Of a DNA stretch of 49,941 nucleotides, positions 16,008 through 41,732 are shown one piece after another. The position numbers were made by a program, and so were the translations under genes. How positions within the stretch are numbered: the stretch's first letter is position 1; every line of letters starts with the position of its first letter. Origin of the DNA: an uncultured Muribaculaceae bacterium (GTDB lineage: Bacteria; Bacillota_I; Bacilli_A; RF39; UBA660); contig CAZBQC010000002.1 of the NCBI GenBank assembly GCA_964494015.1, positions 1 to 49,941 of the forward strand, in the 5' to 3' direction. Under the pieces are notes generated by a model. It worked only from the letters and a program-made list of their open reading frames with translations. It ran no database searches and had not been told where the DNA came from.

Positions 16008-16054
16008 TAGTTTTTTTTATATATGATATAATTTAGTTATAGGGAAATAACTGA

Positions 16055-17273: not shown

Positions 17274-17301
17274 TTGACTTTTTAAATGAAAATCGTATAA
17301 T
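17274..17301 (+). promoter_or_regulatory. Putative promoter of operon 1
   Basis: TTGACT at 17274-17279, a 16-nt spacer, and a consensus TATAAT at 17296-17301. It lies ~120 nt upstream of the small precursor ORF. Confidence 0.55.
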
Positions 17302-17419
17302 AGTTTACAATTATATGGAGACATTATCCTCTTAGAATTAACTTTTTAACTAGTCTATGTAATTATTTGTGTTATAGAATTCGTAAGAATTTTATATAGA
17401 ATAAGAAAGGATGGTTTCA

Positions 17420-17518
17420 ATGAAAAATTTTGAAAAAAAAGTGAATCCAACAATTTCTGTTATCAAAAATAACGGCACAAAAGTTTGTATGGCTGTTGGA
17501 ACATGTCATTGTAACTAA
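17420..17518 (+). CDS. Unannotated 32-aa Cys-rich small ORF; candidate RiPP precursor peptide (MKNFEKKVNPTISVIKNNGTKVCMAVGTCHCN)
   Basis: ATG at 17420 preceded by AGAAAGGATGG. Lys/Asn-rich N-terminal half and a C-terminal CMAVGTCHCN with three Cys. TAA at 17516-17518. It sits immediately upstream of a radical-SAM/SPASM gene and is below the 60-aa cutoff of the ORF track. Confidence 0.65.
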   Translation: MKNFEKKVNPTISVIKNNGTKVCMAVGTCHCN

Positions 17519-17523
17519 TCACA

Positions 17524-17570
17524 CATAAAAGTGGTGTTGGCTATAACGCCGACACCACTTTTATGATTAT
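17524..17570 (+). terminator. Strong hairpin with a U-rich tail between precursor ORF and maturase genes (candidate leaky terminator/attenuator)
   Basis: 18-bp stem CATAAAAGTGGTGTTGGC / GCCGACACCACTTTTATG (one G-U pair), loop TATAAC, then ATTATT. GC-rich core GTGGTGTTGGC...GCCGACACCAC followed by TTTTATGATTATT. Confidence 0.65.
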
Positions 17571-18781: not shown

Positions 18782-18782
18782 T

Positions 18783-20499: not shown

Positions 20500-22442
20500 T
20501 GAATGAAAAGCCAGTAATGACATTAGGAATATTCGCTCATGCGAATGCCGGAAAAACTACTATAACAGAGCAATTATTGTATCATACCAATGTAAAAAAG
20601 ACTCGTGGCAGAGTAGACAATGGTGACACTACAACAGATAATTTAAAAGTAGAGCGTGAAAGAGGTGTATCAGTCAGAGCTTCTTTAGTGACTTTATCTT
20701 TGAGTGATAGGAAAGTACAATTAATTGATACTCCAGGACATGTAGATTTTTCTGCTGAAGTAGAAAGAGCAATCAGTGTACTTGATGGTGCAATTTTAGT
20801 AGTATCGGGTGTTGAAGGTGTTGAATCACAAACACAAGTGATATGGAAAATATTAATGGAAAGGAATATTCCAACATTAATATTTATTAATAAAATGGAT
20901 AGAGTGGGTGCTGATTATGATAGAGTAATTGCTGAAATGAAAGCTAAATTAAGTACCAATATACTTCCTATAGTTAAAGTAAAAAAAGAACAGGATGGTA
21001 CGCTTTCATATAAAGATGTGAAAATTGAAAATATAATAGAAGATATAGCAAGTTATGATGATAATATTTTAGAAAGATATTTGAACGATGAAAAAATATC
21101 AAGAGAATGGTTAGAAGAGCAAGTCAAAAGAATGGCACAAACTGGATTATTATATTTAGTTTATGGTGGAAGTGCATTGCTAGATGAAGGTATGTATCAT
21201 TTAATTAATGGAATATCATCCTATTTACCTGTAGCATCAAAATCAAAATCGTCAGATTTTACTGGGTATATATATACAGTAAAAAGAGATGCTGGAGTTC
21301 GAGAGTTATATGTAAAAGTATTAGAAGGTGAATTAGAAAACAGATATGAGTTTATCACTGATCATGGTTTAAAACAAAAAGTTAGAACAATAACAAAACT
21401 AGAAGGAACGAAACGAACAAGAAGCGAAAGATTAGAAACCGGAGAGATAGGTATTATTACTGGACTTGATGCAAAATGTGGAGATCTTATTGGTAAACCA
21501 ATTCCTAATTTTAAACCTTTTTCATTTGTTAATCCATTATTTCATACTTCTATAACTACTAATAGCAATAGATTACATGAGTTGGTAACTGCTCTTGAAA
21601 TATTAAACGATGAAGATCCATCATTGAATTTACAATACAATAATAATACTGGACAAATTAGCATTGATTTAATGGGAAATTTGCAATCAGAGATAATTGC
21701 AAATATAATAAAGGATAGGTTTCAAATTGATGCAGTATTTTCTGATCCAATAATAATTCATCGTGAAACTCCAATATCTATTGGAAAAGGTGAATGTACT
21801 TTTGATAGGGTATCAGCAGTTGAATTTGAAATTCAGCCTTTACCAATTGGAAGTGGATTACATTACTCATCAAAAATTTCAACCGACTATTTGTTTGCAA
21901 AATACCAAAAACAAATTGAAAAGTTAATAAGAAGTTATTTAAAACAAGGTTTGTATGGTTGGGAAGTTACTGATGCAATGATAACATTAATAGGTGGTAA
22001 GAGCGACTCTGTTTGTTCAGATCCATCACACTTTAATGTGATTGTTCCTCTTGCTTTTATGAGAGCCTTAAAAAATGCTGAAATGCAATTAGAAGAACCA
22101 ATGATGAAATATGAAATAACTGTACCAAACGAAAATATTAGACAAGTATTATCTTCCGTTTCATCATTAGGAGTTAAATATGAAAAAATAATAACTTTAT
22201 CTGAAAACTCCATAATTCCAGGTAATGCACCATTGTCCAGTATAATTGATTTACCGACAATAATAACTAGATTAACCGGTGGTCATGGCAGTTTAATAAA
22301 GAAACCAAATGGTTATCAACCACGTCCAAATATAGATTTGATTGAAAAGAAAGTTATTGGTAGAGATCCAAGAAATGAAATATTATTTTTAATGGATATG
22401 GGGTGCAGTATGGAACATATTGATAGGTCGAAAAGGAAATAA
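20499..22442 (+). CDS. Translational GTPase of the Tet(M)/Tet(O) ribosomal-protection / EF-G-like family
   Basis: 647 aa, which is ribosomal-protection-protein length and shorter than EF-G. G1 AHANAGKTT, G2-region GRVDNGDTTTDNLKVERERGVS (compare Tet(M) [22 protein letters not shown], recalled from memory), G3 DTPGHVDF, G4 NKMDR. The start ATG overlaps the preceding stop (TAATG). Confidence 0.75.
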   Translation: MNEKPVMTLGIFAHANAGKTTITEQLLYHTNVKKTRGRVDNGDTTTDNLKVERERGVSVRASLVTLSLSDRKVQLIDTPGHVDFSAEVERAISVLDGAILVVSGVEGVESQTQVIWKILMERNIPTLIFINKMDRVGADYDRVIAEMKAKLSTNILPIVKVKKEQDGTLSYKDVKIENIIEDIASYDDNILERYLNDEKISREWLEEQVKRMAQTGLLYLVYGGSALLDEGMYHLINGISSYLPVASKSKSSDFTGYIYTVKRDAGVRELYVKVLEGELENRYEFITDHGLKQKVRTITKLEGTKRTRSERLETGEIGIITGLDAKCGDLIGKPIPNFKPFSFVNPLFHTSITTNSNRLHELVTALEILNDEDPSLNLQYNNNTGQISIDLMGNLQSEIIANIIKDRFQIDAVFSDPIIIHRETPISIGKGECTFDRVSAVEFEIQPLPIGSGLHYSSKISTDYLFAKYQKQIEKLIRSYLKQGLYGWEVTDAMITLIGGKSDSVCSDPSHFNVIVPLAFMRALKNAEMQLEEPMMKYEITVPNENIRQVLSSVSSLGVKYEKIITLSENSIIPGNAPLSSIIDLPTIITRLTGGHGSLIKKPNGYQPRPNIDLIEKKVIGRDPRNEILFLMDMGCSMEHIDRSKRK

Positions 22443-22451
22443 AGTGTTAAT

Positions 22452-23579
22452 ATGATAGATATAAGATTAAAAAAAATGGCCGAATCAATTATTAAATATT
22501 CACTTAATATAAGACCAGGGGAAAAAGTTTTAATTGATTCCAGTAAAAATTGTAGTGAAATGATTAAATATTTAATTGAATTAATTGCAAATAATGGTGC
22601 AATTCCATTAGTAATTATTAAAGAAAATGATATTCAAAGAAGCTTAATAATGAACGGTAGTCAAGAACAGTTTGAAATTATGAGGAAGCACGAACAAATG
22701 TTACTAGAGTGTGTTGATGTATATATTAATATGATGGATTCGGATAATTGTTATGATATGTCTGATATTCCAAGTGATAAACGGTCACTATATCAGCAAT
22801 ATTATTTCAAGCCAATTAATTTTGAAGTAATTATGCCAAAACTTAGATGGATAACTGTAGACTATCCATCCGTGTCATCAGCACAACAATTTGGCATGAG
22901 TACAGAAGCATATGAAAAATATTTCTTTGATGCTGTCAATACAGATTATAAAGAGTTACATACCGCAATGATACCTTTAAAAAACATACTTGATAAGGGA
23001 AGGCATGTTCAAATAACATCTCCAGATACAACAAATTTATCTTTTGATATAACCGAATTTAAAGCTGTGATTTGTAGTGGTAAAATAAATATTCCTGATG
23101 GAGAGGTGTTTATTGCTCCAGATTTAAAATCATTAAATGGAACAATTAAATTTAATGTTCCATCTCGTTACTCTGGAAAGCAATTCTCGAACATTTTTCT
23201 TACATTTGAGAATGGTAAAGTAATTAGTCATAATTCAGATACGAATAGTTCTTCACTAACCTCTTTATTGGATATTTCTGAAGGCAATAGATATGTTGGA
23301 GAATTTGCTATAGGAACAAACCCAAACATTGATACACCAAGGACAAACATTTTATTTGATGAAAAAATATTAGGCTCTATTCATTTAGCCTTAGGAAATA
23401 GTCATAGTTTAAGTGACAACGGAAATGTTGGATCAATTCATTGGGATATGGTTAAAATGTTAACTCCTGAATATGGCGGTGGAAGTGTTATTATTGATGA
23501 TCGATTGATTCAAGAAAATGGAATATTTATTCCAGAAGAATTAAAGTCCCTACATTCTAAAAAATTAGTTAGGAAATAA
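22452..23579 (+). CDS. M29-family aminopeptidase (AmpS/PepS-like)
   Basis: IKYSLNIRPGEKVLI, INIPDGEVFIAP, GEFAIGTN, IHLALGNS and IHWDMV follow the thermophilic-metalloprotease M29 motif order. Confidence 0.75.
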   Translation: MIDIRLKKMAESIIKYSLNIRPGEKVLIDSSKNCSEMIKYLIELIANNGAIPLVIIKENDIQRSLIMNGSQEQFEIMRKHEQMLLECVDVYINMMDSDNCYDMSDIPSDKRSLYQQYYFKPINFEVIMPKLRWITVDYPSVSSAQQFGMSTEAYEKYFFDAVNTDYKELHTAMIPLKNILDKGRHVQITSPDTTNLSFDITEFKAVICSGKINIPDGEVFIAPDLKSLNGTIKFNVPSRYSGKQFSNIFLTFENGKVISHNSDTNSSSLTSLLDISEGNRYVGEFAIGTNPNIDTPRTNILFDEKILGSIHLALGNSHSLSDNGNVGSIHWDMVKMLTPEYGGGSVIIDDRLIQENGIFIPEELKSLHSKKLVRK

Positions 23580-23629
23580 TGGTAAAAGAGTAGAATCAAA
23601 AAATTAAATTATAAAAGGAGGTAATTTGA

Positions 23630-24103
23630 ATGGAATTAGTTCAAATTAAACAAAAAGATTTAGAAATATTAGAAAGGTTATTGCAGTTATATTTACACGA
23701 CATTAGTAAATATTTTCCAATAGAATTTGAGGAAAATACAGGGTTATATCTGTATGATGGTTTAGACAAATATTTTGATGGTTCAAAAAATTATGCTTAT
23801 TTTATAAAATTAGAAAAAAAAATAGCCGGCTTTATTTTGGTTGATTCTAATGAAAATGAAAAAATTATTCAAGAAATGTTTGTTTTAAATCATCATAAAA
23901 ACAAAGGTATTGGTAAATTAGCTGTTTGCAAAGTGTTAGAGAATAGTAAAGGTAATTGGATTATAAAGTCCTTACCGAATTCTGAACCTGCTGAAAGATT
24001 TTGGGATAGAACAATAAAAGAATATACTAATAATAGTTATCATGTTGAACATGTTGGTAGATATAATAGAGCTGTTTTTACTTTTAATAATAGTGATAAA
24101 TAA
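23630..24103 (+). CDS. GNAT-family N-acetyltransferase
   Basis: 157 aa. Acetyl-CoA-binding region QEMFVLNHHKNKGIGKLAV and C-terminal AERFWDRTIKEY. Strong RBS AAGGAGG. Confidence 0.7.
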   Translation: MELVQIKQKDLEILERLLQLYLHDISKYFPIEFEENTGLYLYDGLDKYFDGSKNYAYFIKLEKKIAGFILVDSNENEKIIQEMFVLNHHKNKGIGKLAVCKVLENSKGNWIIKSLPNSEPAERFWDRTIKEYTNNSYHVEHVGRYNRAVFTFNNSDK

Positions 24104-24104
24104 T

Positions 24105-25295
24105 ATGGAAGTATATTTAAGAAGAAAGAGTGAGGAATTAGAGTTTTTGTCTGGTTTTATAGATAATGAATTTCAGCATGCTCGTTTGATTGCACCAGCC
24201 AATGTTATATCAGTAAAAGAGCAAATAACTAAAGAGATTAGAAATAAAAACAGTATAAAATACTATCATGAATTAACAAATAAAACTAAAATTGGATTCA
24301 ATGATATATTTGAATACAACTATACATATGAACGATTTAATGGTTTTATAAAAATTCCATATTTTGCGAATGATTTTTATCATATAGAAAAAAATGTTAT
24401 CACAGAAACTTATTTTTCTAATTGTGGTATGAGTTCCATAGTTTCGCTTTTATCATCAATAATTTCCGCAAATGATTGTAGTGTGGACTTAATGTATGAG
24501 GAAACTTACTTTGAAACAATAAAGTTTCTTAGTTCGATAATAAAAGTAAAAAATCAAGATTTTTTTCTTTATATTGATTCAATAGCAAGTAATTTTAGCT
24601 TTCTTGATGATTTTAATTCTGATAATTATCTTGGAGTAATTATTGATACAACTTGTTTTGTTGGTGAAGATTATAAAAAAATGATAAACTATATAATATC
24701 GACAGGAACACCATGTGTTTTAGTACGTAGTCATACTAAAATAGATTTACTTGCAACAGAATACTCACATATTGGATCCGTTTCATTTATTTATCCGAAA
24801 ATTGAAAATAATAAAACAAAGAGAGTAAAAAAAGTTGAAACTGATTGTAAACATTTAATAGGTGTTTTTGGAGCTTGTTTACCTCCAGAAAAGTTTCCAA
24901 CTTTTATATTAAATAATAAAATAAAAACATTAAATAATAACAGAATAAAAATTGTTAATGAAAACAATAGTTTATTCTTTTCTATTTTGAAAGATTATAA
25001 AATTAATGTGATTTTACCGAATCATAGGCAATTCTGCTTGATATATTTAAAAACCATTTCAGGTACATTAGAGGATTTAAAACAGAAAATATATAATTTT
25101 TGCAAAGAAAATGAGAAGGAATTTCTAACTTACTCAGCTGTAAGTTTTGGTTTTGATTATATTTCCATTGACTGTTATCAAAATTTTGTGGATTCAACAT
25201 TTAAAATTAGGGTATGTATAAATGATTTTCCAAAATTAGTTATAGAAAGCTTCGCTTACAAATTTATTGAATTTTTAAAAATAATTGATGACTAA
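24105..25295 (+). CDS. Hypothetical protein; possibly a divergent fold-type I PLP enzyme (Cys/Met-metabolism family-like)
   Basis: ATG 1 nt after the GNAT stop. The order of FSNCGMSSIVSLL, YEETY, VIIDTTCF and VLVRSHTKIDL parallels the SSGmaAi / Y.gT / vDnTfatP / hSaTKyl motifs of cystathionine synthase/lyase-type enzymes. Weak similarity judged by eye only. Confidence 0.35.
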   Translation: MEVYLRRKSEELEFLSGFIDNEFQHARLIAPANVISVKEQITKEIRNKNSIKYYHELTNKTKIGFNDIFEYNYTYERFNGFIKIPYFANDFYHIEKNVITETYFSNCGMSSIVSLLSSIISANDCSVDLMYEETYFETIKFLSSIIKVKNQDFFLYIDSIASNFSFLDDFNSDNYLGVIIDTTCFVGEDYKKMINYIISTGTPCVLVRSHTKIDLLATEYSHIGSVSFIYPKIENNKTKRVKKVETDCKHLIGVFGACLPPEKFPTFILNNKIKTLNNNRIKIVNENNSLFFSILKDYKINVILPNHRQFCLIYLKTISGTLEDLKQKIYNFCKENEKEFLTYSAVSFGFDYISIDCYQNFVDSTFKIRVCINDFPKLVIESFAYKFIEFLKIIDD

Positions 25296-25617: not shown

Positions 25618-26487
25618 ATGATGAAAATAAAAAAGCTTCCAATGGATGAATTAAGGATATCGATTACTTCAAGTTGCAATATGAAGTGTTACTATTGTCA
25701 CAATGAAGGAAATAGATTAACAAGCAAACTAGATATTAATGATATAGATTCATTAATAAACGCTGCAATGAAATTTGGATTAAAAAGTATCAGATTGACT
25801 GGTGGAGAACCAATGATCTGTAATGATATTTTCAGTATTTGTAGCATGATAAAAGAAAAATATAATTTAAAAATAGGTATAAATACTAATGGCATCGAAA
25901 TAGATAAAATATTAGAATTGATTGATTCTAATTTAATTGATAGAGTGGTAGTAGGAATAGATTATTTCAATAATAAGATATCTAAGAATTCACCAGTTGG
26001 TATATGTTCTAAAGATATTTTAAGAAATATTGAATTAATCAAAAAAAGAGGTATTGGTGTTACTATTGCAACAGTTTTTGATAATGATTATAGTGATATA
26101 GAACAGTTATTTAATTGGGCTTTAACACATGACATTAGAATAAAAATTTTGGAAAAGATAGATGATGAACAAAGTGATGTTACATCTCCAGCTTATATAA
26201 AAATTAGAGATCAAATTATAGATAAATATAATTTAATACCTAAAATAGATCCTATTTTTAATGAGTTACATGGTTATCTTGGTGGAAAGAGAGTTGTTTC
26301 TTTTTTTCATTCTCATTGTCGAATAAGGGAGTGCAGATTATGTAAAAACATGCACTTGAGAGTCATGAGTAGTGGGAAGCTAAAGCCTTGTTTGCTAAAT
26401 ACGGAAACAGAAGTTGATTACAAGATAGGAAATGTTGAAAAAAATATTGTTACAGCTATTGATTTATTAGGGATACCACCTAAATAA
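25618..26487 (+). CDS. Radical SAM enzyme, MoaA-like (GTP 3',8-cyclase family architecture)
   Basis: LRISITSSCNMKCYYCHNEG, IRLTGGEPM, and a C-terminal second cluster region CRIRECRLCKNMHLRVMSSGKLKPCL. No other molybdopterin genes are in the window. Confidence 0.55.
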   Translation: MMKIKKLPMDELRISITSSCNMKCYYCHNEGNRLTSKLDINDIDSLINAAMKFGLKSIRLTGGEPMICNDIFSICSMIKEKYNLKIGINTNGIEIDKILELIDSNLIDRVVVGIDYFNNKISKNSPVGICSKDILRNIELIKKRGIGVTIATVFDNDYSDIEQLFNWALTHDIRIKILEKIDDEQSDVTSPAYIKIRDQIIDKYNLIPKIDPIFNELHGYLGGKRVVSFFHSHCRIRECRLCKNMHLRVMSSGKLKPCLLNTETEVDYKIGNVEKNIVTAIDLLGIPPK

Positions 26488-28444: not shown

Positions 28445-28729
28445 ATGAATAAAAGAAAACTATGGAGTAAAAAAGAAAAAATTAGAGTTGTTAGAAAAGT
28501 GTTAAGTACGAATAAATCCCTATCGACAATTGCTAAAGAAGAATCTCTCGATGTGAAAATTATTATTAGATGGGTAAGAAAGTATAATAATGAAGGAGAA
28601 AATGGTCTATCATCAAATAGGAATAAGACTTTAGCTAAGAGGACCACTCAAGAAAAAACACTAGGTTGGGAGCTGGAAAATATATTATCAAAAAAAGTTT
28701 ATTGGCTGAAAGAGGGTGTTCAAATTTAA
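28445..28729 (+). CDS. IS3-family transposase OrfA (HTH)
   Basis: WSKKEKIRVVRKVLSTNKSLSTIAKEESLDVKIIIRWVRKY is a typical IS3 OrfA helix-turn-helix. Confidence 0.8.
   Translation: MNKRKLWSKKEKIRVVRKVLSTNKSLSTIAKEESLDVKIIIRWVRKYNNEGENGLSSNRNKTLAKRTTQEKTLGWELENILSKKVYWLKEGVQI
28690..28697 (+). other. Programmed -1 ribosomal frameshift heptamer A AAA AAA (G)
   Basis: In the orfA frame the codons read TCA AAA AAA GTT. A -1 slip gives ...KKSLLAERGCSNLKV, which is the orfB frame. Confidence 0.7.
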
Positions 28730-29619
28730 AAGTTGCTTCCTCTCTTAAATTAAAGTATGCCATTATTCATCAACTTAGGAAGAATTATTCTATTAAATTT
28801 TTGTGTGATCGTTTAGATATCAATCGTAGCAGTTATTATAAGTGGTTAAAAAGCGATTGTGGTCACAGGCAAAGAAAAAAAAGAGAGAAATTAATTAAAC
28901 TTATCAACGTTATTCATGAAAACTATCCAACTTACGGATATCGAAGAATTGGATTTTTAGTTAGAAAAAGATTTAATGTTTCTGATCAATACATATATAA
29001 ATGTTGTTCATACTTAGGAATAAAGTCAAAAGTTAAAAGAAATAAGTCGAGAAATAAACCTTTAGGCATCAATAAGTATGATAATCTTGTCAATAATAAG
29101 TGGAATACTTTAAGGCCTTTAGAAATAGTAATATCTGATACCACTACTATTAATCATTGCACAGGCGAGTACAATTTAACTTTATATATTGATGCATTCA
29201 ATAATGAGATTATTAGCTATGATCTAACTGAGAAGGGACATGAAGAACTTTCTTCTCATCTTAAAGCTTTGACTAGATTTATTAAGATAAAAAAGAGTCG
29301 AGGTTACTTTAATATTAGAACGATTCTTCATACTGATCAAGGAGCAATATATGCTTCTGATGTTTTTAATGCTATTTGCAAGAACAATAATATTATTCAC
29401 AGTATGTCGAGGTTGGGTAAACCGACTGACAATGCCAAAATAGAGGCGATTAACGGTTGGATTAAACAAGAAATGGAAACAGACTTCCATTTTTTTTATG
29501 TACAAAATATTGCTCAGTTCATTAAAAAATATGTTAACTACTACAATACTGAGCGACCATCCTATAAGTTAGGTAATAAGACACCTCTTGGGTATAGGCT
29601 TGATTGTCATTTTAAATAA
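28696..29619 (+). CDS. IS3-family transposase OrfB part (DDE/rve integrase core), expressed as an OrfAB fusion
   Basis: YGYRRI, VISDTT (D), LHTDQGAIYAS (D) and GKPTDNAKIEAINGWIKQE (E). Confidence 0.8.
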   Translation, partial: SLLAERGCSNLKVASSLKLKYAIIHQLRKNYSIKFLCDRLDINRSSYYKWLKSDCGHRQRKKREKLIKLINVIHENYPTYGYRRIGFLVRKRFNVSDQYIYKCCSYLGIKSKVKRNKSRNKPLGINKYDNLVNNKWNTLRPLEIVISDTTTINHCTGEYNLTLYIDAFNNEIISYDLTEKGHEELSSHLKALTRFIKIKKSRGYFNIRTILHTDQGAIYASDVFNAICKNNNIIHSMSRLGKPTDNAKIEAINGWIKQEMETDFHFFYVQNIAQFIKKYVNYYNTERPSYKLGNKTPLGYRLDCHFK

Positions 29620-33086: not shown

Positions 33087-33620
33087 ATGTATGAATTAAA
33101 AGATTTTGAATTAGAAGGAAAAATGAATGATGCGTATCATTATTTGACACTAAATTTATCCGAAACAGGGCACAATAGCAAACCTGTTTTAATGCATAGT
33201 ATTGCTGTTTCGATGACATTATATCATTTGGGATATAATGAAGAAATTGTAATTTCGTCTATATTACATGATGTAATTGAAGATACTGATGTTTGTTATG
33301 AGGATGTAAAATCAAAATTTGGAGAGAATATTGCTGATATTGTTAATGCAGTTAGCTTTAATCCGGATATAGAAGATAAAATATTACAAACCAAAGAAGT
33401 ATATAAAAGAATTGGTAACCAGGGATATCAGGCTTTAATTGTAAAGTGTTCTGATTTGTTTTGTAATTTACCATTCATAGAATGTGTTAAAAAAGAAGAG
33501 ACATTAAGGTATTTAAAAACGAAATATAAATTATTTATTGAAATGTTTGGTGAAGAATTAAGCAAGGAAAAAATATATAATTTGTTTGTTGAAAGGTATA
33601 AAAGTTTGATTAATGATTAA
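33087..33620 (+). CDS. HD-domain (p)ppGpp-hydrolase-like protein (RelA/SpoT hydrolase-domain family, stand-alone)
   Basis: HSIAVSMTLYHLG and ILHDVIEDTD are the signature of the RelA/SpoT-type HD hydrolase domain. 177 aa. Confidence 0.65.
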   Translation: MYELKDFELEGKMNDAYHYLTLNLSETGHNSKPVLMHSIAVSMTLYHLGYNEEIVISSILHDVIEDTDVCYEDVKSKFGENIADIVNAVSFNPDIEDKILQTKEVYKRIGNQGYQALIVKCSDLFCNLPFIECVKKEETLRYLKTKYKLFIEMFGEELSKEKIYNLFVERYKSLIND

Positions 33621-33783: not shown

Positions 33784-33946
33784 AACCATTGTATTTGGGA
33801 ATGTATCCCCAAGGTTATTTTATTGTTGCGGTATTTAATTAATTTGGGGGACTGATTTTCGGATTCTCAATTTTTATTATAAAAAGCGGAGATTATGAAA
33901 TAAAAATTATAAGATAATTTATGTGTAGCAGTCCATGGAGGATTTT

Positions 33947-36043
33947 ATGGAAGAAGATAAGATAACTGTTGTTGTACCTATGTATAATAGTGAAAAATAT
34001 ATAGAACGTTGTCTAAAATCCATATGCAATCAATCGTATCAAAATCTAGAAATTATTGTAATAGATGATGGAAGTACAGATAATAGTAAATTTATTGTTG
34101 AAAAGCTACAAGAAAGTGATTCAAGAATCAATTACTTTTACCAAGAAAATAAAGGACCAGGTTTAGCTAGAAATGTTGGGATTGAAAACGGAATAGGCAA
34201 ATATATTTCTTTTATTGATAGTGATGATGAAATAAGAAAAACATTTATTGAAGTTCTTTACAAAACTATAAGAAAAGACGACAGTTTTTCCTTAACTGGT
34301 GGATATATGATTTATCAAGATGGATCAACCGAAAAATCATTTTTAACAACAAAAACAGAAACTAAGAACTTTAAAGTTCCTATCTGTTGTAATAAACTAT
34401 TTAATTTTGAATTAATTCGAAAAAATAACTTAAGATTTCAGGGACTATATTATGCAGAGGATATAGATTTTTGGGGAAGAATTTTAATGATTAATGATAA
34501 TTTTTCGATTGCAAATGACTATTTATATTTATGCTATTTTAGAGAAGATTCTTTGACTAGAAGTTACACAGATAAAAGTATAATTTATCAAATATTCTAT
34601 GTAGTAGATAACATAGAAAAACTTGCAAAAGAAAATGAAAAGTTCGATCAGTATAAAGATAGCTTAGAATTTTTAAATATAAAAGAAATTTTTATAAGGG
34701 CAATGAAACAAATTAGTCAAATGCCTAGTTTCAGTGACTATGACATAATTAAAATGCTTGAATATGTCGAGGCAAAATATCCTAATTGGTATTATAATAA
34801 ATATATCAGATCTTCCTTTGATAAATATAGAAAGAAAAGATTGGAATTGTTATTTAAAAAAGATTTTGCCGGTTTAATTAGTTATCTTAGACAATTAAAT
34901 TCAGGATATGTAGTTCAATCTGATGAAGAGATTTTAGCACAAAATATTATTAATCATTCCATTGCTGTTGAAAAAGGACAAGCAGTTCAAATTAGGTATA
35001 AAAGCACGAAGTGTAATCCGTTAGTTATACAATTAATTAGAGAAATTCAAGAAAAAGGAGCAATTGCTATTACTAGATTTCAGGATGCAGAATTAGAAAG
35101 GGTTACAAAAGAAACATATGACATTTATGCAATGACTAAGTTGGCCGGGATAATTACAAGAGAATCTGAATTTTATGATTCATTTATATCAATTGGATAT
35201 AGTGAAAATGATTATGATTCATCAAAAAGTAATGAAAACCCAGCTAGTAGAATACTTATTAGTAATCTTACGGATTATAATAAAATTGTTCGTAATAAAA
35301 AGGGGATAGTACTTTCTTATCCTTCTCCTTTAGATGCGCATAAGTCAAAAATGACTACAGAGGAATATAAGAGATATGCTTTTTCTATTTTAAATTATGA
35401 TTACAAGTCACTTAAGTCAAAAATGGTACCATTACAGAAATTAATAGAGAAAACGAAAAAAGTTTCTATATTAGGTAAAGATACAGAGTTAAGTTTTCTT
35501 ATTGAAAATATAGGTGGAATTATCATGGCGGGAGAAGTTAATATTCCGGATGGAGAAGTATATACTGCTCCAATTAGAAATAGTGTCAATGGAATAGTAA
35601 AGTTTAATGTCCATAGCAAATACATGGGAAATGTTTACGAAAATGTGATATTAGAATTTAAAAATGGAAAGATTATTGATTTTAATTGTAACAATCCAAA
35701 TGATTTTAAAGGTATCATAGATATTGACGAGGGTAGTAGGTATATTGGAGAATTTGCTTTAGGAGTTCATCCGTTAATACTTCATCCTATATTAAGTACT
35801 CTTCATGATGAAAAAATATATGGCAGTTTTCATTTGGCATTAGGGCAGTCTTATAGGAATGCTTATAATGGAAACGATTCCAATATACATTGGGATTTAA
35901 TTGATATTCAGAGAAATGATTATAATCCAGGTAAAATATATTTTGATGAAGAATTAGTAAGAGAAAATGGAGAATTTATTTTGGATGATTTAAAACCATT
36001 AAATGACAAAAGAGCTTATACATTAACTACAAGGAGAAGATAA
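33947..36043 (+). CDS. Bifunctional fusion: N-terminal family-2 glycosyltransferase plus C-terminal M29 aminopeptidase domain
   Basis: GT2: ITVVVPMYNSEKYIERCL, IIVIDDGSTDNS and FIDSDD. M29: VNIPDGEVYTAP, GEFALGVHP, FHLALGQS and IHWDLI. Start preferred at the ATG at 33947 (GGAGG 5 nt upstream); the track start is 33935. Confidence 0.75.
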   Translation: MEEDKITVVVPMYNSEKYIERCLKSICNQSYQNLEIIVIDDGSTDNSKFIVEKLQESDSRINYFYQENKGPGLARNVGIENGIGKYISFIDSDDEIRKTFIEVLYKTIRKDDSFSLTGGYMIYQDGSTEKSFLTTKTETKNFKVPICCNKLFNFELIRKNNLRFQGLYYAEDIDFWGRILMINDNFSIANDYLYLCYFREDSLTRSYTDKSIIYQIFYVVDNIEKLAKENEKFDQYKDSLEFLNIKEIFIRAMKQISQMPSFSDYDIIKMLEYVEAKYPNWYYNKYIRSSFDKYRKKRLELLFKKDFAGLISYLRQLNSGYVVQSDEEILAQNIINHSIAVEKGQAVQIRYKSTKCNPLVIQLIREIQEKGAIAITRFQDAELERVTKETYDIYAMTKLAGIITRESEFYDSFISIGYSENDYDSSKSNENPASRILISNLTDYNKIVRNKKGIVLSYPSPLDAHKSKMTTEEYKRYAFSILNYDYKSLKSKMVPLQKLIEKTKKVSILGKDTELSFLIENIGGIIMAGEVNIPDGEVYTAPIRNSVNGIVKFNVHSKYMGNVYENVILEFKNGKIIDFNCNNPNDFKGIIDIDEGSRYIGEFALGVHPLILHPILSTLHDEKIYGSFHLALGQSYRNAYNGNDSNIHWDLIDIQRNDYNPGKIYFDEELVRENGEFILDDLKPLNDKRAYTLTTRRR

Positions 36044-36044
36044 A

Positions 36045-37166
36045 ATGACAAAAGTGCCGTCGCTGATTGTTTTAAATCTTACATCTGATTGTAATTTACG
36101 ATGTAAATATTGTTATGCTTCTGCCGGTAATTGCAAAGATTATATGACTTCAAGGTGTGCTATTGAAATAGTTACACAAGTTTCAAAATATAATGATTCT
36201 ATTGAACTACTATTTCATGGTGGCGAACCACTAATGAACTTTGAAGTTATTAAGAATGTAATAAATTTTTGCAAAAATAAATTAAAAGAAAAAGAAATAA
36301 GTTATTATATTCAAACTAATTCATTGCTTCTTACAAAAGAAAAAGCAGAATATCTAATCAATGAAAATGTTGAAATATGTCTTAGTATGGATGGTAATAC
36401 TGAAATAAGTAATAGTGGCAGGGTCGACTCTAAAGGGAATTCGAGTTTAAATATTATTAAAAGCAGAATAGAGTTATTGAAATCATTAGACTATAATACT
36501 ACCATTTTGGCAGTTCTAAATAAGAAAAATGTAGGAAAAATTGAATCATTTATAGACTATCTTGTGGAAAATAAAATTTATAATTTTTCATTAAACTATT
36601 TTATTAAAGGTGGTCGTGGTAATAATAATAAGAATCTAGCGCTAAATCCGAAAGCACTATATAATGCAACAGTAAAAACTATTAATAAAGTTTTAGAATA
36701 TCGTCGGAAAAATGTTAAAATAATAGAGAGAAATGTTTTACATTTATTAAGAAATGTTATAACCAAAAGTAAAGGTTATATGTGTATGAATAGTCCATGC
36801 GGGGCTGGTAATCATCTTTTAGGGTTCACACCGAATGGGGATATTTATCCTTGCGATGATTTAAGTTCAGTAGAACAATTTAAAATCGGAAATATTTTTG
36901 ATGGTGATTTAATGAATACCCTAGAAAATAATAGTATTGTAAATTTCTTTAACTATTGTTCTTATGATAATATTCCAAAATGTTGTTGCTGTGATTTTAA
37001 AGATCGTTGTGGAGCTGGTTGTGCATCTAGAAAATTTTATGAAAAAGGCACAATATATGAAGTTGATCCAATTTGTGAATTTTATAAAATGATAATACCA
37101 TATATAGAAAATAGAATAAAAAATGAACCGTTAATAAAGGAATTGATTGATGAACATGAAAAATGA
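36045..37166 (+). CDS. Radical SAM/SPASM enzyme (anSME-like), no N-terminal extension
   Basis: SDCNLRCKYCY, FHGGEPL and YMCMNSPCGAGNHLLGFTPNGDIYPCDD, then CCCCDFKDRCGAGCASR and PICEF. Confidence 0.8.
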   Translation: MTKVPSLIVLNLTSDCNLRCKYCYASAGNCKDYMTSRCAIEIVTQVSKYNDSIELLFHGGEPLMNFEVIKNVINFCKNKLKEKEISYYIQTNSLLLTKEKAEYLINENVEICLSMDGNTEISNSGRVDSKGNSSLNIIKSRIELLKSLDYNTTILAVLNKKNVGKIESFIDYLVENKIYNFSLNYFIKGGRGNNNKNLALNPKALYNATVKTINKVLEYRRKNVKIIERNVLHLLRNVITKSKGYMCMNSPCGAGNHLLGFTPNGDIYPCDDLSSVEQFKIGNIFDGDLMNTLENNSIVNFFNYCSYDNIPKCCCCDFKDRCGAGCASRKFYEKGTIYEVDPICEFYKMIIPYIENRIKNEPLIKELIDEHEK

Positions 37167-37845
37167 TATTTTAGGGAAAAAAATAGACAGAAACCAATTA
37201 GATATTATAAATAAAATAATGAAAGTAAAAAATAAAATTCTTTTTTTAAAATCCATCCCTCAAACAGGGAAAACAGCAGTTCTAAAAAGATTATTTGACA
37301 TCAATAATGATAAAATAAAAATGTTTATTACTGGATGTAATCCAAAAAACATGAAGTTTATTGACGATAGTGTTTTATTTGAAATAAACTCATGTATTAA
37401 TAAAAATAGGAATGAAAATATATCAATTTTTTTTGATGAATACTATAATTGTAAAATTTTGGATTATTTTAAACATAATAAATTAGATAATGTAAGTGTA
37501 TATATTAGTACTAATAAAATAAGTAAAGAAATTAGTTATGATGTTGAAATAATAGATATATACGAAGATGTATTTAGAGGTTTAGATAAATTCATGTTTT
37601 CAAAATATTCGGTTGATATCTCTACAAAAGTTCGTAAAAGAAGTATTTCAATAATGGAACTTATGGAAATTGTCAAAATTCTTCAAAATAAAAAGTATTT
37701 AAATTATTCTGTTGATAAATTACTTTTATTCCTTCAAAATAAGCTAAAAAGTAAAAAAATTAAAAGATTTTTACCGACGACTACGGCAATACTTTATATA
37801 AATAAAGATTATCAAATGTTAAAAACATTTGAGTTCAAAGAATAG
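37147..37845 (+). CDS. Hypothetical protein with P-loop NTPase-like Walker A/B motifs
   Basis: SIPQTGKTAVLKRL (Walker-A-like) and ISIFFDEYY (Walker-B-like). Overlaps the previous gene by ~20 nt. Start at TTG 37147 or ATG 37150/37156. Confidence 0.35.
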   Translation: MMNMKNDILGKKIDRNQLDIINKIMKVKNKILFLKSIPQTGKTAVLKRLFDINNDKIKMFITGCNPKNMKFIDDSVLFEINSCINKNRNENISIFFDEYYNCKILDYFKHNKLDNVSVYISTNKISKEISYDVEIIDIYEDVFRGLDKFMFSKYSVDISTKVRKRSISIMELMEIVKILQNKKYLNYSVDKLLLFLQNKLKSKKIKRFLPTTTAILYINKDYQMLKTFEFKE

Positions 37846-37857
37846 TGGGGTAATTAA

Positions 37858-39165
37858 ATGAGCTTATCATTAGTAACTAAACCAAATTTGAATATTCTTA
37901 TAAATAAGAATAGTGGCAAATGGATAGCATTTAAAAATAATGAAGAAATAAAAAGTGAGATTATAGAAATAACCAATAAACAACAACTAATGCGAAAGTA
38001 TGGTGAAAAATTCGCAAATCTACTTTGGAATAAAAGAGTTGAGATGGCTAAGAAATCCAAAAATAAGTTATGTTATAATATGAATTGCCTAGTAATAAAT
38101 GTGACTAATAATTGTAACTTAAAATGTGAATATTGTTATGTAAATAAATATGATAACAGACATTTTATAGAGAGCGACACTATAATTAAATCAGTAAAAA
38201 TGTTTGCCTCAAATATTTATCCAAATAAATTGACAGTAATTTTTCATGGAGGTGAGCCATTATTAGCTTTTGATAAAATTAAAGAGGCTGTTATTAAATT
38301 AATTAATGTAAATAATGTTGTATATTCTCTCCAAACCAATGGAACATTACTTGATTCAGACAAATTAGATTTTTTTAAGAAGCATAAATTTTTAATTGGA
38401 TTAAGCATTGATGGTATAAATGACGAAAATAATTCGTTAAGAAATGTAGATGGTAAAATGAGAGATTATACCCTAAATAATTTGAAAATTTTAAGCCAAA
38501 ATAAAGATTTTGTAAAGCCTCTTCTTGTGATTCATAGGAAAAATATCAATAGTATAAAAGAAATAGTTGATTATTTTAAAAATAATGGATTTGATGGTTT
38601 AGTATGTAATTTATTATTTGAAAGTAATGATTTTAAAAATTGCGTATTAGATGATTCATTATTTGAAAATATGAAATACACTTTGGATGTTATGATGGAA
38701 AATTTTGACGGTGAAAACTTCTCCTTTTCCGAACGTGACATAAGGTTATTATTTAGAAAGGTGGTATTTGGTTTTTTAGATGAATACATGTGCATGAATA
38801 GCCCATGTGGAGCAGGCAAAGAAACAATTGCGATTGATTATAATGGGAATGTATGGGGATGTAATGTATTAATATCAAAAAACAAAGATCAAAATTATAT
38901 GGGGAATGTATTTAATAATTCTGTTGAAGAAATATTAAATAAAAAAATTTCAATTTCTAAACGTAATATTAAAAATATAGTTAAGTGTATGTCTTGTCCC
39001 TATAAAGTATTATGTGGTGGTGGAGGATGTTGCGGATTCATATCTCATCAAAACAATAAACTTCTGGATAATAGTATATATTGCAACTATCATTTTAAAC
39101 TAATTACTTATATAATAGAGAGTGTCATGAAATATAACAAAACTGATATTTTGGTTAATTTTTAA
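37858..39165 (+). CDS. Radical SAM/SPASM enzyme with a ~85-aa N-terminal (RRE-like) extension; paralog of 36045-37166
   Basis: NNCNLKCEYCY, FHGGEPL and YMCMNSPCGAGKETIAIDYNGNVWGCN, then CMSCPYKVLCGGGGCCGF and IYCNY. Confidence 0.8.
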   Translation: MSLSLVTKPNLNILINKNSGKWIAFKNNEEIKSEIIEITNKQQLMRKYGEKFANLLWNKRVEMAKKSKNKLCYNMNCLVINVTNNCNLKCEYCYVNKYDNRHFIESDTIIKSVKMFASNIYPNKLTVIFHGGEPLLAFDKIKEAVIKLINVNNVVYSLQTNGTLLDSDKLDFFKKHKFLIGLSIDGINDENNSLRNVDGKMRDYTLNNLKILSQNKDFVKPLLVIHRKNINSIKEIVDYFKNNGFDGLVCNLLFESNDFKNCVLDDSLFENMKYTLDVMMENFDGENFSFSERDIRLLFRKVVFGFLDEYMCMNSPCGAGKETIAIDYNGNVWGCNVLISKNKDQNYMGNVFNNSVEEILNKKISISKRNIKNIVKCMSCPYKVLCGGGGCCGFISHQNNKLLDNSIYCNYHFKLITYIIESVMKYNKTDILVNF

Positions 39166-39178
39166 AGGAGGTGATTAT

Positions 39179-39307
39179 ATGAAAAATAAGGATAAAAACT
39201 TTGATGCAATTATGAAAAAGCTATTAAACAATAAGAAAGTAAAAATTAAAGTTCCTACTTACAATAGTAAGGTAATGATGGCTCATTGGAGCAACGGATA
39301 TAATTAA
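39179..39307 (+). CDS. Unannotated 42-aa Cys-free small ORF; candidate RiPP precursor (MKNKDKNFDAIMKKLLNNKKVKIKVPTYNSKVMMAHWSNGYN)
   Basis: Strong RBS AAAGGAGGTG 5 nt upstream of the ATG at 39179, which lies 13 nt after the rSAM stop. TAA at 39305-39307, followed by a terminator. The C-terminus is rich in aromatic and polar residues (Y28, H36, W37, Y41) and has no Cys. Confidence 0.65.
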   Translation: MKNKDKNFDAIMKKLLNNKKVKIKVPTYNSKVMMAHWSNGYN

Positions 39308-39318
39308 AAGGAATTTGG

Positions 39319-39352
39319 AAATGACATATGATTTATTCATTTGTCATTTTTT
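39319..39352 (+). terminator. Intrinsic terminator ending operon 2
   Basis: AAATGACA(TATGA...TCAT)TGTCATTT followed by TTT. Confidence 0.65.
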
Positions 39353-39561: not shown

Positions 39562-41178
39562 ATGAAAAATGTTTATTATTGTTCACACAATAAAGAAATT
39601 ATTAATAATAAGATATTAATTAAACCTAATGCTGGTTTGTATTATACATTAGACAATTATGTTTTATGTTTATTATATTCTGTAAGTTTTGATGTAGATT
39701 ATTACATACAAATAGTATTTGTTGGTAAAAAATTAATTATAGTGGAAAGATTTAAAAATGCTATTAAGCAAGCTTATAGTGATAAAAGTGTTTACATATA
39801 TACAGCTAAAGGCCCCTTTTTTCGACATAAAAAGAAAGAGAATTATTATATAAAAAGAAAATTAATGGTAAATAATGTAAGTTATATAAAAAATATTTAT
39901 GATGAAATAACTGATAAGGCCAAAAACAATGAATTAGATATAATAAAATATAAACAAAGTACAAAAAAAGATATAGATATCCTTAATAAAAAGTTTCTTG
40001 AGAAAATTTTAAATATGAATTCAAAAACAAAAATCAATGAATGTTCATTGTTTTTTCCTCATATTAAAAAGAATACTAATCATAAAATACTAAAAGGAGT
40101 GGAAAAATATAGAAATAATGATATAAATAATCCTCATTATTTGTTCCATGGATCTTGTAGTTTAGTAAAGGGTTATATAAACCCAAATCAAGCTTATTGT
40201 AGTACTCTTAGTGTAGAGAACAATGAATGTGCTGTATACTCAGTAGCAGATCCAAAATATACTATACCATATTTATTTAAATTAAAAAAAGGGAAATTTT
40301 ATAATTTTAAAAACAGGAAGCATGAGTATGCAAGCCATTTTAAAACAGATTTATATTTTGGATTAGAAAATACAATAATCAAACAAGGCAGTATAAGCAT
40401 GAATGCAGTTGGCTATATATATGTTTTCTTGTCGAACAACTTTTTTCGAAATTCATCTGTGCAATGGATTTCTAAAGAAAAATGTAAGCCAATTGATATT
40501 GTAAAAATAAGTTATAAAGATGTACAAGAAAACTTTATTTATGTAAAGGAATGTTTAATTGAGAACTTATATAAAAAAATTGAAAAAAAGAGAGGCTTTT
40601 TGGAAGCTGAATTTAATAAAATCAAAAAACAGTGGTTTGATAATTTAATTGATAACCATGATAGAAAACATATGGAAAGAGTATGTCTATTATCGGTATA
40701 CATTGCAACTTTGATGAATATAGATGATAACGATATTATTTTATTAATTAAGGTGGCTTTATATCATGATATAGGCCGAATTAATGAATTTAGGGAAGAA
40801 AAACACGGGATCAGAGGTGCTAAGCTCCTTCATAGTATCCTAACTAATTATTTACCTGAACCAGTAGGTAATATTAATATAAATGAAATTCAATTTTTAG
40901 TTTCAAGCCATTGTGTTAACGAAAATAAATATAGTTCTTTTTTTCGTAAATATAAATGTTCAAAAATTAGACACGATAGCTTATTGATTTTGTTAAAAAT
41001 TCTAAAAACTGCTGACATACTTGACATGTGCAGATATAAAAAATTTAACTCAATTTTTAAGATTTTAAATTTTAGTGAAATTGAAAGTGCTAGATTAATT
41101 TATATTGCAGAAGATTTATATAAATATTATAATAATTATATTAGTGATAGAAAGGAGTATTTTAAAAATCAAAAATGA
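39562..41178 (+). CDS. Large hypothetical protein with a C-terminal HD-domain phosphohydrolase module
   Basis: The HD module contains HMERV and VALYHDIGRINE...KHGIRGAKLL. The middle region has YLFHGS ... AVYSVADPKYTIPY, a possible ADP-ribosyltransferase-like H-Y pattern (see findings). Confidence 0.5.
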   Translation: MKNVYYCSHNKEIINNKILIKPNAGLYYTLDNYVLCLLYSVSFDVDYYIQIVFVGKKLIIVERFKNAIKQAYSDKSVYIYTAKGPFFRHKKKENYYIKRKLMVNNVSYIKNIYDEITDKAKNNELDIIKYKQSTKKDIDILNKKFLEKILNMNSKTKINECSLFFPHIKKNTNHKILKGVEKYRNNDINNPHYLFHGSCSLVKGYINPNQAYCSTLSVENNECAVYSVADPKYTIPYLFKLKKGKFYNFKNRKHEYASHFKTDLYFGLENTIIKQGSISMNAVGYIYVFLSNNFFRNSSVQWISKEKCKPIDIVKISYKDVQENFIYVKECLIENLYKKIEKKRGFLEAEFNKIKKQWFDNLIDNHDRKHMERVCLLSVYIATLMNIDDNDIILLIKVALYHDIGRINEFREEKHGIRGAKLLHSILTNYLPEPVGNININEIQFLVSSHCVNENKYSSFFRKYKCSKIRHDSLLILLKILKTADILDMCRYKKFNSIFKILNFSEIESARLIYIAEDLYKYYNNYISDRKEYFKNQK

Positions 41179-41732
41179 AACAAGAAAAATTATATAATAA
41201 AATTAAGTTCGAGACCGAAAGATTAATAATTAGGCGTATAAAAAAGTCTGATTGGAATGATTTTTTTCAATTAATGAGTGATGAAAAAACCATGAATTTT
41301 CTAGGTAGAGTTATAACAAAAGATGAAGCAAAAGGTTATGTTATAAATCAAAGTAATATTAGTTACGAAAATTATAGTGGTTGTTATGCTGTGGTATTAA
41401 AATCCGAAAATAAAGTAATTGGACAGTTTGGTCTAGACATAAATGAGAAACATTCTAAGGCTTCTATAAGTTATTTATTTAATAGTAACTATTGGAATAA
41501 AGGTTATGCTATTGAAACGGTTAAATTTATGGTGGATTTTGCTTTTAATGAAATAAAATTAAATAGAATCGAAGCCGATTGCGTGGAAGAAAATGATTCA
41601 TCATTAAAGATATTCAATAAATTAGGAATGAAGTACGAAGGAAAATTTAGGGAGGCTCGTTTTAATAAAAAATATAATAAATATTTTAATGTTGTTTATT
41701 ATGCAGTATTAAGAAAAGATTATAAATCATAA
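41175..41732 (+). CDS. GNAT N-acetyltransferase of the RimJ/RimL (Acetyltransf_3) type
   Basis: ERLIIRRIKKSDWNDFFQL, NKGYAIETVKFMVDFAFNEIKLNRIEADCVEENDSSLKIFNKLGMKYEG. The ATG overlaps the preceding TGA (ATGA). Confidence 0.7.
   Translation: MKQEKLYNKIKFETERLIIRRIKKSDWNDFFQLMSDEKTMNFLGRVITKDEAKGYVINQSNISYENYSGCYAVVLKSENKVIGQFGLDINEKHSKASISYLFNSNYWNKGYAIETVKFMVDFAFNEIKLNRIEADCVEENDSSLKIFNKLGMKYEGKFREARFNKKYNKYFNVVYYAVLRKDYKS

Follow-up and report, generated by a model that had tools for sequence, protein, structure and literature searches.

The window analyzed here, a stretch of 49,941 nucleotides of contig CAZBQC010000002.1 (assembly GCA_964494015.1, an uncultured Muribaculaceae bacterium that GTDB places in the RF39 lineage of Bacilli_A), carries at 39179-39307 of the forward strand an open reading frame (ORF) of 42 codons that we consider a genuine precursor of a ribosomally synthesized peptide with post-translational modifications (RiPP), modified by the radical S-adenosylmethionine (rSAM) enzymes encoded next to it. 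Taken alone this statement is very probable, and it is still probable when the chemistry proposed below is taken along with it. About 33 distinct homologous peptides were found in public data, and together they apparently form a coherent RiPP family of low-GC Firmicutes that is new to description. By analogy with known systems, the chemistry would most likely consist of triceptide-like side-chain crosslinks in the H-W-S-N motif, possibly also in Y-N-S, together with glycosylation and trimming by an aminopeptidase.

A conserved gene at the end of an operon

The ORF translates as MKNKDKNFDAIMKKLLNNKKVKIKVPTYNSKVMMAHWSNGYN, identical to the sequence in the initial annotation of this DNA, which had singled it out as a precursor candidate without Cys. 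That description was exact, including the triplets Y-N-S (residues 28-30), H-W-S (36-38), W-S-N (37-39) and G-Y-N (40-42). A leader with the helix motif F8-D-A-I-M-K-K-L15 is followed by the core V25-P-T-Y-N-S-K-V-M-M-A-H-W-S-N39. The ATG is located 13 nt past the stop codon of the gene of a 435-aa rSAM/SPASM enzyme (hereafter rSAM-B), behind a Shine-Dalgarno (SD) site, and the gene is followed by a hairpin at 39317-39351 (Table 1) whose stability was reached by none of 200 shuffled sequences. The hairpin was not flagged by a simple terminator scan because its stem is AT-rich. From the SD site and the hairpin, the peptide ORF is the final gene of an operon whose genes all run in the same direction; this operon begins at 33935 and also encodes a glycosyltransferase of family 2 (GT2) fused to an M29 aminopeptidase, a second rSAM/SPASM enzyme (rSAM-A) and a small P-loop NTPase.

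The peptide matches no Pfam or NCBIfam model, and the Rfam scan gave no match near the locus. Compared with its counterpart in L001 (the labels L001-L118 designate contig loci carrying homologous genes), the last 18 codons differ by five synonymous changes and a single non-synonymous one, the leader is far more variable and the DNA similarity breaks off at the peptide stop codon. With the homologues described below, the sequence data confirm that this is a real, conserved gene and no chance ORF.

Two routes to the same peptide family

A search with the peptide returned three 40-aa homologues (73-77% identity; 73-79% for the homologues in syntenic loci). One of them sits in eight syntenic contigs, including one from the Bacilli metagenome-assembled genome GCA_028699175.1, in which the gene order is that of the window: GT2-M29, rSAM-A, P-loop, rSAM-B, peptide. 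We also used synteny, collecting the contigs of rSAM-B homologues (28-40% identical) and reading the small ORFs adjoining them. Each locus whose contig reached the peptide side had a small ORF with the same core, present twice in L010 (MKKLPKYDENSIMMHWSDTSVATKLPKYDENSIMMHWSDTSC) and L095 (LPKYDERAIMMHWSNTS), three times in L093 (LP[DE]YDDSVIMMHWSNT) and once, after a long leader, in L097/L098 (IPEFDDEALMVHWTNCS). A profile search of a database of 5.8 billion proteins yielded 21 peptides, and an exhaustive hidden Markov model search of 1.84 billion cluster representatives yielded 20 clusters.

The independent route was a scan of metagenome DNA with a back-translated pattern of the core motif only. 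It gave 15 matches, and 13 of these were small family ORFs, two of them with four cores in tandem. Every one of these 13 was flanked by at least one of rSAM-B, rSAM-A, P-loop, a glycosyltransferase of family 9 (GT9) or other genes of the cluster, rSAM-B being found in nine; the two remaining matches, without cluster neighbours, were obvious chance matches. Twenty loci with the motif lie on contigs that extend far enough on the rSAM-B side of the peptide, and all of them have rSAM-B, the commonest partner of the family. A contig scan with patterns back-translated from the rSAM-B alignment, which correspond to generic rSAM motifs, found only distant rSAMs (21-30% identical) and no family members. 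The synteny and motif-only routes thus agree on one predicted peptide family, and both bear out the earlier proposal of a precursor-type peptide tied to the two rSAM/SPASM enzymes.

The core motif and the leader

The family core, deduced from about 40 distinct core units, has the consensus Phi-P-x-[Y/F]-[D/N]-x-x-x-Phi-M-x-H-W-[S/T]-N. P26, M34 and H36 are invariant and W37 is conserved in 39 of 40 units, counts that have to be read knowing that the units were cut out with a pattern that itself included P, Y/F, M and H and that profile searches favour conserved columns; only the members derived from synteny are free of this motif-retrieval bias, and they show the same conservation. Position 28 is Y in 33 units and F in 7, position 38 is S in 33 and T in 7, and position 39 is N in 36, D in 2 and S and F in one each. 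Position 29, N in the window, is D in 35 units, N in 4 and K in 1; position 30 (S in the window) is E in 26, D in 6, S in 4 and other residues in 4, and position 31 (K in the window) varies among N, K, D, A, S, E, R and Q. G40, Y41 and N42 are conserved solely within the sub-clade of the window (...HWSNG[YF]N). A sub-family with Phe at position 28 has the core xPxFDxxALMVHWTN (L097/L098 and L105, the latter being GCA_053842995.1 chromosome 10001-19230).

Alignment with precursors from syntenic loci, the check proposed in the initial annotation, therefore separates conserved positions (H36, W37, S/T38, N39 and Y/F28) from others that are not (K31, G40, Y41 and N42). The W37-S38-N39 site suggested there for a crosslink keeps its place as a candidate, its residues and H36 being invariant or nearly so (S/T at 38), and the linkage itself is something that we infer. 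For the second suggested site, Y28-N29-S30, the aromatic residue holds up (Y or F in all of the ~40 units) and the acceptor does not, as S30 is mostly E or D. A streptide-type link between K31 and W37 is unlikely since K31 is variable in the family, and the terminal G-Y-N and Y41 were rejected as modification sites given their restriction to a single sub-clade. The family has no conserved Cys, so that thioether chemistry can be discarded, as had been argued.

Relatives carry the core in one to four tandem copies, with a repeat unit of 18-21 residues. The four-core precursors of L109 (7688-7909, reverse strand) and L114 (3157-3378, reverse strand) consist of near-identical cores (LPEYDENSIMMHWSNTSN[KS]E) behind a leader of ~4 residues. 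Single-core members have in common the leader helix motif Phi-[DE]-x-[IL]-[VIM]-x-x-Phi. In multi-core members the first Pro is preceded by 4-17 residues, or by 23 if the ORF of P0125 is read at its longest, and such short leaders imply that recognition takes place at least partly within the repeated unit. The leader of the window peptide had also been likened to that of a small ORF in another operon of the window (17411-17518, see below). The two have six identities in 24 ungapped positions, which composition-preserving shuffles equal readily (P = 0.15), and the NN at 17-18 that formed part of the resemblance is not conserved even among close orthologues. The likeness is thus at chance level, and a leader logic shared by the two operons was rejected.

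The two radical SAM enzymes

rSAM-A and rSAM-B are 29% identical to each other. rSAM-A begins directly at the CxxxCxxC motif, and rSAM-B has an N-terminal extension of ~75 residues. The AlphaFold2 model of rSAM-B, built with 14 homologues, reached a predicted local distance difference test score (pLDDT) of 86.7, and in it the rSAM barrel and the SPASM domain are preceded by residues 1-63, folded into four short strands and two helices. With Foldseek this model aligned over its full length to CteB (E = 1.7e-19, 463 columns), followed by anSME, TigE, ChlB and SuiB. CteB, TigE and SuiB are RiPP maturases bearing N-terminal peptide-recognition domains. The model thus supports an N-terminal domain that resembles a RiPP recognition element (RRE) and would bind the peptide, a role for which the initial annotation had already proposed the extension, and it predicts for rSAM-B the make-up of a RiPP maturase, with an RRE-like domain, an rSAM core and SPASM. 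A precursor co-conserved with an RRE-bearing rSAM/SPASM maturase is what generically defines an rSAM-modified RiPP, and this is the arrangement found here.

By sequence, the nearest solved structures for the rSAMs are CteB and anSME, the latter being the best PDB sequence match of rSAM-B. The best curated names for both enzymes are HxsB, PapB, DynA and CbpB, nearly tied at 120-165 bits, with cut-offs of 340-450. Specifically, the two enzymes score 164.5 and 150.5 bits with the HxsB model (TIGR03978, cut-off 370), 158 and 143 with PapB (340), 157.3 and 121.4 with DynA (NF041298, 450) and 132 and 78 with the SCIFF maturase model (425). The DarE model (NF038005, 650) gave 75.4 bits. Among the cyclophane models (GrrM/OscB TIGR04261, FxsB TIGR04269, YhhB NF041707 and AmcB NF041718), rSAM-A scored 90.9, 82.4 and 104.2 bits (cut-offs 310, 445 and 425) and rSAM-B 96.2, 77.0, 108.6 and 87.9 (310, 370, 445 and 425). 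The curated models thus do not sustain a placement of these enzymes among the DarE-type enzymes or those that form three-residue cyclophanes (3-CyFE), with which they had been compared.

Gene content of the related loci

The association of the peptide with rSAM-B and the P-loop NTPase is fixed, and so is that with rSAM-A except in loci of the L105 type; glycosyltransferases, peptidases and GNAT acetyltransferases are frequent partners. Orthologues of rSAM-A are 45-77% identical to the window copy in most loci and 33-38% in L108, L115 and L118, those of rSAM-B 30-68% and those of the P-loop protein 23-50%. The fullest operons (L099-L101, L109 and L114) encode, from first to last, a transglutaminase-like protease, rSAM-A, P-loop, rSAM-B, the precursor, GT9, GNAT, M29 and HldE-, GmhA- and GmhB-like proteins. 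The glycosyltransferase and peptidase partners, the P-loop NTPase, the GNAT at 41175-41732 of the window and the multi-core relatives do not appear in the initial annotation.

The gene for GT9 and those for the HldE-, GmhA- and GmhB-like proteins replace GT2 in L010, L093, L095, L099-L102, L106, L109, L114, L117 and L118. The GT9 protein is nearest to lipopolysaccharide heptosyltransferases, although under their cut-offs, and its presence together with ADP-heptose genes in most relatives points to a heptosylated peptide. The GT2 domain of the window has its PDB sequence matches among generic GT-A enzymes (GalT1, chondroitin synthase and TarS-like). Proteases accompanying the family are of the M29, M3 or transglutaminase-like type. 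The GT2-M29 fusion has an orthologue in L001 (72% identity), and relatives with GT9 carry a separate M29 gene. In L006 (2050-4146) GT2 (344 aa) and M29 (303 aa) are separate genes; the fused version of the window and L001 may stem from a recent fusion, or the discrepancy may lie in the assembly or in a frameshift. All seven multi-core loci have the transglutaminase-like protease, which is absent from the visible parts of single-core loci; presumably it cuts between cores.

GNAT genes are found inside the operon in L099 and L101. The GNAT of the window is 73% identical to the one beside the L002 operon and 32% identical to those within the L010 and L095 clusters, so it belongs to the peptide system. 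The P-loop protein has a Walker A G-K-T, a Walker B D-E and a conserved T-G-C-x-P motif, and G39, K40, G61, P64, D95 and E96 are invariant across loci. It has no NCBIfam match, and its single-sequence model is of low confidence (pLDDT 40.8). The listed ORF begins with the TTG at 37147; starts at 37153 or 37156 are equally possible.

The Phe28 clade (L097/L098 and L105) is without glycosyltransferase, and GT2 or GT9 is found in all Tyr-type loci for which the flank is long enough. The Phe-type loci also carry two unknown proteins of ~330 and ~440 aa, an rSAM of 310-320 aa without SPASM and two ATP-binding cassette ATPases of ~600 aa.

Comparison with known systems

Among known systems, this one would work most like the triceptides (XyeB, GrrM/OscB, FxsB, YhhB, AmcB, ChlB and MicB/minviopeptin) and their 3-CyFE. 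In triceptides a C(sp2)-C(sp3) bond joins an aromatic ring to the C-beta of the third residue of the motif, with a loss of 2 Da per motif. Both have a Cys-free peptide with triplets of the appropriate type (here Y-N-S, H-W-S and W-S-N), rSAM/SPASM maturases adjoining the precursor, relatives with repeated motifs and a Pro just before the first aromatic residue. Tailoring by group transfer is another likeness, minviopeptin being ADP-ribosylated and the present system having a glycosyltransferase. The minviopeptin motifs are YSK, HAS and FTK, and rSAM-made His-x-Ser and Tyr-x-Lys cyclophanes are known from it (PMC12912966). There are also differences. The rSAMs score 77-109 bits against 3-CyFE cut-offs of 310-445, a single enzyme is replaced by two distinct rSAMs and a P-loop NTPase, conservation extends over a motif of 15 residues and not just triplets, and the literature searched records no such tailoring set (glycosyltransferase/heptose, M29 and GNAT) for triceptides.

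With darobactin and dynobactin the peptide shares a short core containing Trp, and one of the four top NCBIfam names of rSAM-A is DynA. W-S-N also resembles the Trp-x-Asn type of link that the initial annotation cited for dynobactin; dynobactin A is WNSNVHSYRF. The core VPTYNSKVMMAHWSN has a single Trp and no H-x-Y, and thus neither a W-x-W-x-K core nor a core of the dynobactin type with a second His-x-Tyr ring. Moreover, one enzyme suffices there and two are found here, and the Gram-positive host offers no BamA-targeting context. Membership was rejected given the DarE and DynA scores well under cut-off and the lack of W-x-W.

The HXS antiphage system (HxsA/B/C/D; TIGR03976-03979) has HxsB as the best curated model of both rSAMs, and further likenesses are the His-Xaa-Ser in the invariant core and the use of two rSAMs on one substrate. 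As described (PMC13128918), it comprises HxsC, HxsD and the effector HxsA, which has a peptidoglycan-binding domain and multiple repeats of H-x-S, whereas the substrate here has 40-80 aa and a single H-x-S per core. The HxsB scores are under half of the cut-off and HxsC, HxsD and a peptidoglycan-binding effector are all missing, and so membership was rejected here as well. Streptide (StrB/SuiB) is also made by an rSAM/SPASM enzyme with RRE; SuiB is a structural neighbour of rSAM-B and the window peptide has both Lys and Trp, but K31 is not conserved and there is no StrB-family score, and a Lys-Trp crosslink was rejected. A sacti- or ranthipeptide identity was discarded with the absence of Cys from the window peptide, and of conserved Cys from the family, and with PapB and SCIFF scores under cut-off.

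As in glycocins (with a SunS-type GT2) and in cacaoidin (a Tyr O-glycoside), the precursor operon includes a GT2, and Tyr, Ser and Thr could serve for O-glycosylation. Unlike them, the peptide is devoid of Cys and of a disulfide hairpin, the GT2 is fused to M29 and its PDB matches are generic GT-A enzymes, not SunS-type, and relatives use GT9 with the ADP-heptose pathway, a combination for which no RiPP report was found. The full-text literature (a scope that leaves out most subscription journals, so that an earlier description is possible) held nothing relevant for the motif strings or for rSAM RiPPs with heptosyltransferase, heptose or M29.

A proposed pathway and its alternatives

We propose the following pathway. 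The operon 33935-39307 would be transcribed as a single unit ending at the hairpin past the peptide gene. The leader helix F8-L15, the N-terminal half of the core (Phi-P-x-Y-D/N...Phi-M) or both would dock on the RRE-like domain of rSAM-B. rSAM-B and rSAM-A would then each abstract an H atom and form one side-chain crosslink (-2 Da), while the P-loop NTPase might help either of the two rSAMs or the handover from one to the other. The likeliest crosslinks would be of the three-residue cyclophane type, from His36 to the C-beta of Ser38 and/or from Trp37 to the C-beta of Asn39. They correspond to the two overlapping aromatic-X-X triplets within the contiguous and invariant H-W-S/T-N, and the former has a precedent in the rSAM-made His-x-Ser cyclophane of minviopeptin. 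Y28-N29-S30 is an alternative second site, although Tyr28 may be the sugar acceptor rather than crosslinked.

The GT2 domain would add the sugar, with Tyr28, Ser38 and Asn39 as candidate acceptors, Tyr28 being weakly favoured because the sole Phe clade is the one without any glycosyltransferase. An N-glycosylation sequon (N-x-S/T) at N39 was considered and rejected, as N39 is followed by G-Y in the window and is replaced by D or S in some members. The fused M29 aminopeptidase would trim the leader from the N terminus and stall ahead of the invariant Pro26, a natural stop since X-Pro bonds are resistant to most aminopeptidases. The product released would be a modified peptide of ~15-18 residues beginning with V25-P26. 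The GNAT may acetylate the new N terminus, or the product for self-protection (immunity). The specific crosslink sites and the order of the steps are tentative, and we would put them at somewhat less than an even chance.

Several observations weigh against this scheme. Both rSAMs are far under all curated cyclophane, daropeptide, ranthipeptide and HxsB cut-offs, so the type of reaction is not transferable by homology; anSME-like oxidation of Ser/Thr, epimerisation or other SPASM chemistry may be what they catalyze. The linked residues, the task of each enzyme and the type of bond (C-C, C-N or C-O) are all deduced. In the Y28 triplet the acceptor varies (E/D/S/N/M/I/Q), and a cyclophane model leaves the invariant M34 and P26 unexplained. 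The absence of rSAM-A from L105 indicates that the two-rSAM scheme is not universal. The correlation between Tyr28 and a glycosyltransferase comes from a single clade and is in effect one evolutionary event, for which reason it is merely a hint at glycosylation of Tyr28. The retrieval bias described above may also inflate part of the conservation, and the peptide gene is known here from sequence alone.

The alternative that survives best, unlikely in our view, keeps the genuine precursor and exchanges the cyclophanes for other chemistry: oxidation of Ser/Thr38 (an anSME-type aldehyde or ketone condensing with His or Trp), an HxsB/HxsC-type reaction on His-Xaa-Ser, epimerisation, or a large ring from Tyr28 to a distant His or Trp. 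The strict S/T at 38 fits an oxidisable hydroxyl, and anSME is both the best PDB sequence match of rSAM-B and a high Foldseek match; this similarity, however, is only at the generic SPASM level. HxsB is the top NCBIfam name for both enzymes, the core holds exactly one H-x-S/T and the HXS system has an unexplained change of +8 Da on S-H-R-S-S (PMC13128918). Against this, the HxsB scores (150-165 bits for a cut-off of 370) are tied with those of PapB, DynA and CbpB, and genes for HxsC, HxsD or a peptidoglycan-binding effector are missing from the locus. Also, 3-residue cyclophane enzymes use precisely such aromatic-X-X triplets, with conserved acceptors (S/T and N), as are found here.

It is very improbable that the small ORF, while conserved, is not the substrate, and acts as a regulatory, immunity or chaperone-like micropeptide next to rSAMs working on another peptide or on a non-peptide (e.g. 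a sugar). rSAM/SPASM enzymes also modify sugars and cofactors, the family cluster includes sugar-nucleotide genes and a glycosyltransferase, and in the window the peptide gene is at the 3' end of the operon and not at the 5' end. Nevertheless, the family loci hold no other candidate precursor with a conserved motif, the peptide stays with rSAM-B through very different gene orders, the N-terminal domain of rSAM-B appears to be of the peptide-recognition type, and two to four tandem copies of a unit of 18-21 residues are typical of multi-core RiPP precursors and not of regulators. Finally, a chance ORF without product, conceivable in a window with 29% G+C where short Lys/Asn-rich ORFs are common, is already refuted by conservation, being contradicted by the SD site, the terminator, the excess of synonymous changes in the core, the existence of ~33 homologues and the specificity of the motif scan (13 of 15 matches).

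A bolder version of the crosslinking scheme can be formulated, which we regard as rather unlikely. It would be a new RiPP class in which the two rSAM/SPASM enzymes and the P-loop NTPase build overlapping bicyclic His-Ser/Trp-Asn crosslinks on H-W-S-N, followed by glycosylation (with heptose from ADP-heptose in most relatives), recognition residing inside each core and not in the leader. Recognition of this kind would explain the near-leaderless precursors with two to four cores.

Genomic context in the window

The coordinates of the operon and of the genes that follow it are collected in Table 1. The HD-domain gene and the start of the GNAT gene overlap by 4 nt and are thus translationally coupled, and no counterpart of the HD-domain protein was found among the related loci. 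A second, small HD_4 protein is encoded just 5' of the operon (33087-33620). The S10 ribosomal-protein operon starts at 42050, so the peptide locus is chromosomal. PADLOC returned only generic rSAM matches at the level of viperin.

Table 1. Features of the peptide operon and the adjoining genes (window coordinates).
Feature	Position	Strand	Description and basis
GT2 glycosyltransferase-M29 aminopeptidase fusion	33935..36043	+	702 aa; GT2 ~1-340, M29 ~330-700 (Pfam)
rSAM-A, radical SAM/SPASM	36045..37166	+	373 aa, without N-terminal recognition domain (Pfam, NCBIfam)
Small P-loop NTPase	37153..37845	+	~230 aa, between both rSAM genes (weak AAA_14 and nSTAND Pfam matches)
rSAM-B, radical SAM/SPASM maturase	37858..39165	+	435 aa, predicted RRE-like domain 1-63 (Pfam, AlphaFold2 model, homologues)
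Ribosome-binding region	39165..39178	+	AGGAGG, 7 nt, ATG; directly 3' of the rSAM-B stop (read from sequence)
Precursor peptide gene	39179..39307	+	42 aa; leader ~1-24, core 25-39, then G-Y-N tail
Terminator-like hairpin and U-run	39317..39351	+	dG -13.1 kcal/mol, z = -4.06; marks operon end
HD-domain protein	39562..41178	+	538 aa (Pfam)
Acetyltransf_3 (RimJ/RimL-type) GNAT	41175..41732	+	185 aa (Pfam)

A second RiPP-like operon (17411-25295, forward strand) begins with the Cys-containing small ORF mentioned above (MVSMKNFEKKVNPTISVIKNNGTKVCMAVGTCHCN). It encodes an rSAM/SPASM protein of 403 aa, an unknown protein of 292 aa, an rSAM of 302 aa, a TetM/EF-G-like GTPase of 647 aa, an M29 peptidase of 375 aa, a GNAT of 157 aa and another unknown protein of 417 aa. 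The GTPase, of the ribosomal-protection type, hints at a product that may target the ribosome, with self-resistance. The sole real link between the two operons is the M29 peptidase in each (35-37% identical); both have a GNAT nearby, of different Pfam types. Directly after the second operon is a stand-alone MoaA-like radical SAM protein (289 aa, under the MoaA cut-offs; 25618-26487, forward strand), and an insertion sequence-type transposase (HTH_21 plus rve integrase core; 28445-29619, forward strand) lies between the two RiPP-like operons. Elsewhere in the window there are an Abi_2 (abortive-infection-like) protein (1962-2915, forward strand) and a tRNA gene (7348-7418, forward strand), the only Rfam match in the window.

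Significance

Peptides crosslinked by rSAM enzymes (darobactin, dynobactin, streptide and the triceptides) have been a productive source of enzyme chemistry and of antibiotics. To this field the family described here offers a sharp core motif, two rSAMs with a division of labour that can be dissected and a P-loop NTPase as partner. The near-leaderless multi-core relatives bear on how RiPP enzymes recognize their substrates, and most members would have a glycosylation step that uses the ADP-heptose pathway; if this is true, the heptosylated relatives would be the first heptosylated RiPP. The five-gene, single-core version of the window would be a convenient minimal system for heterologous reconstitution.

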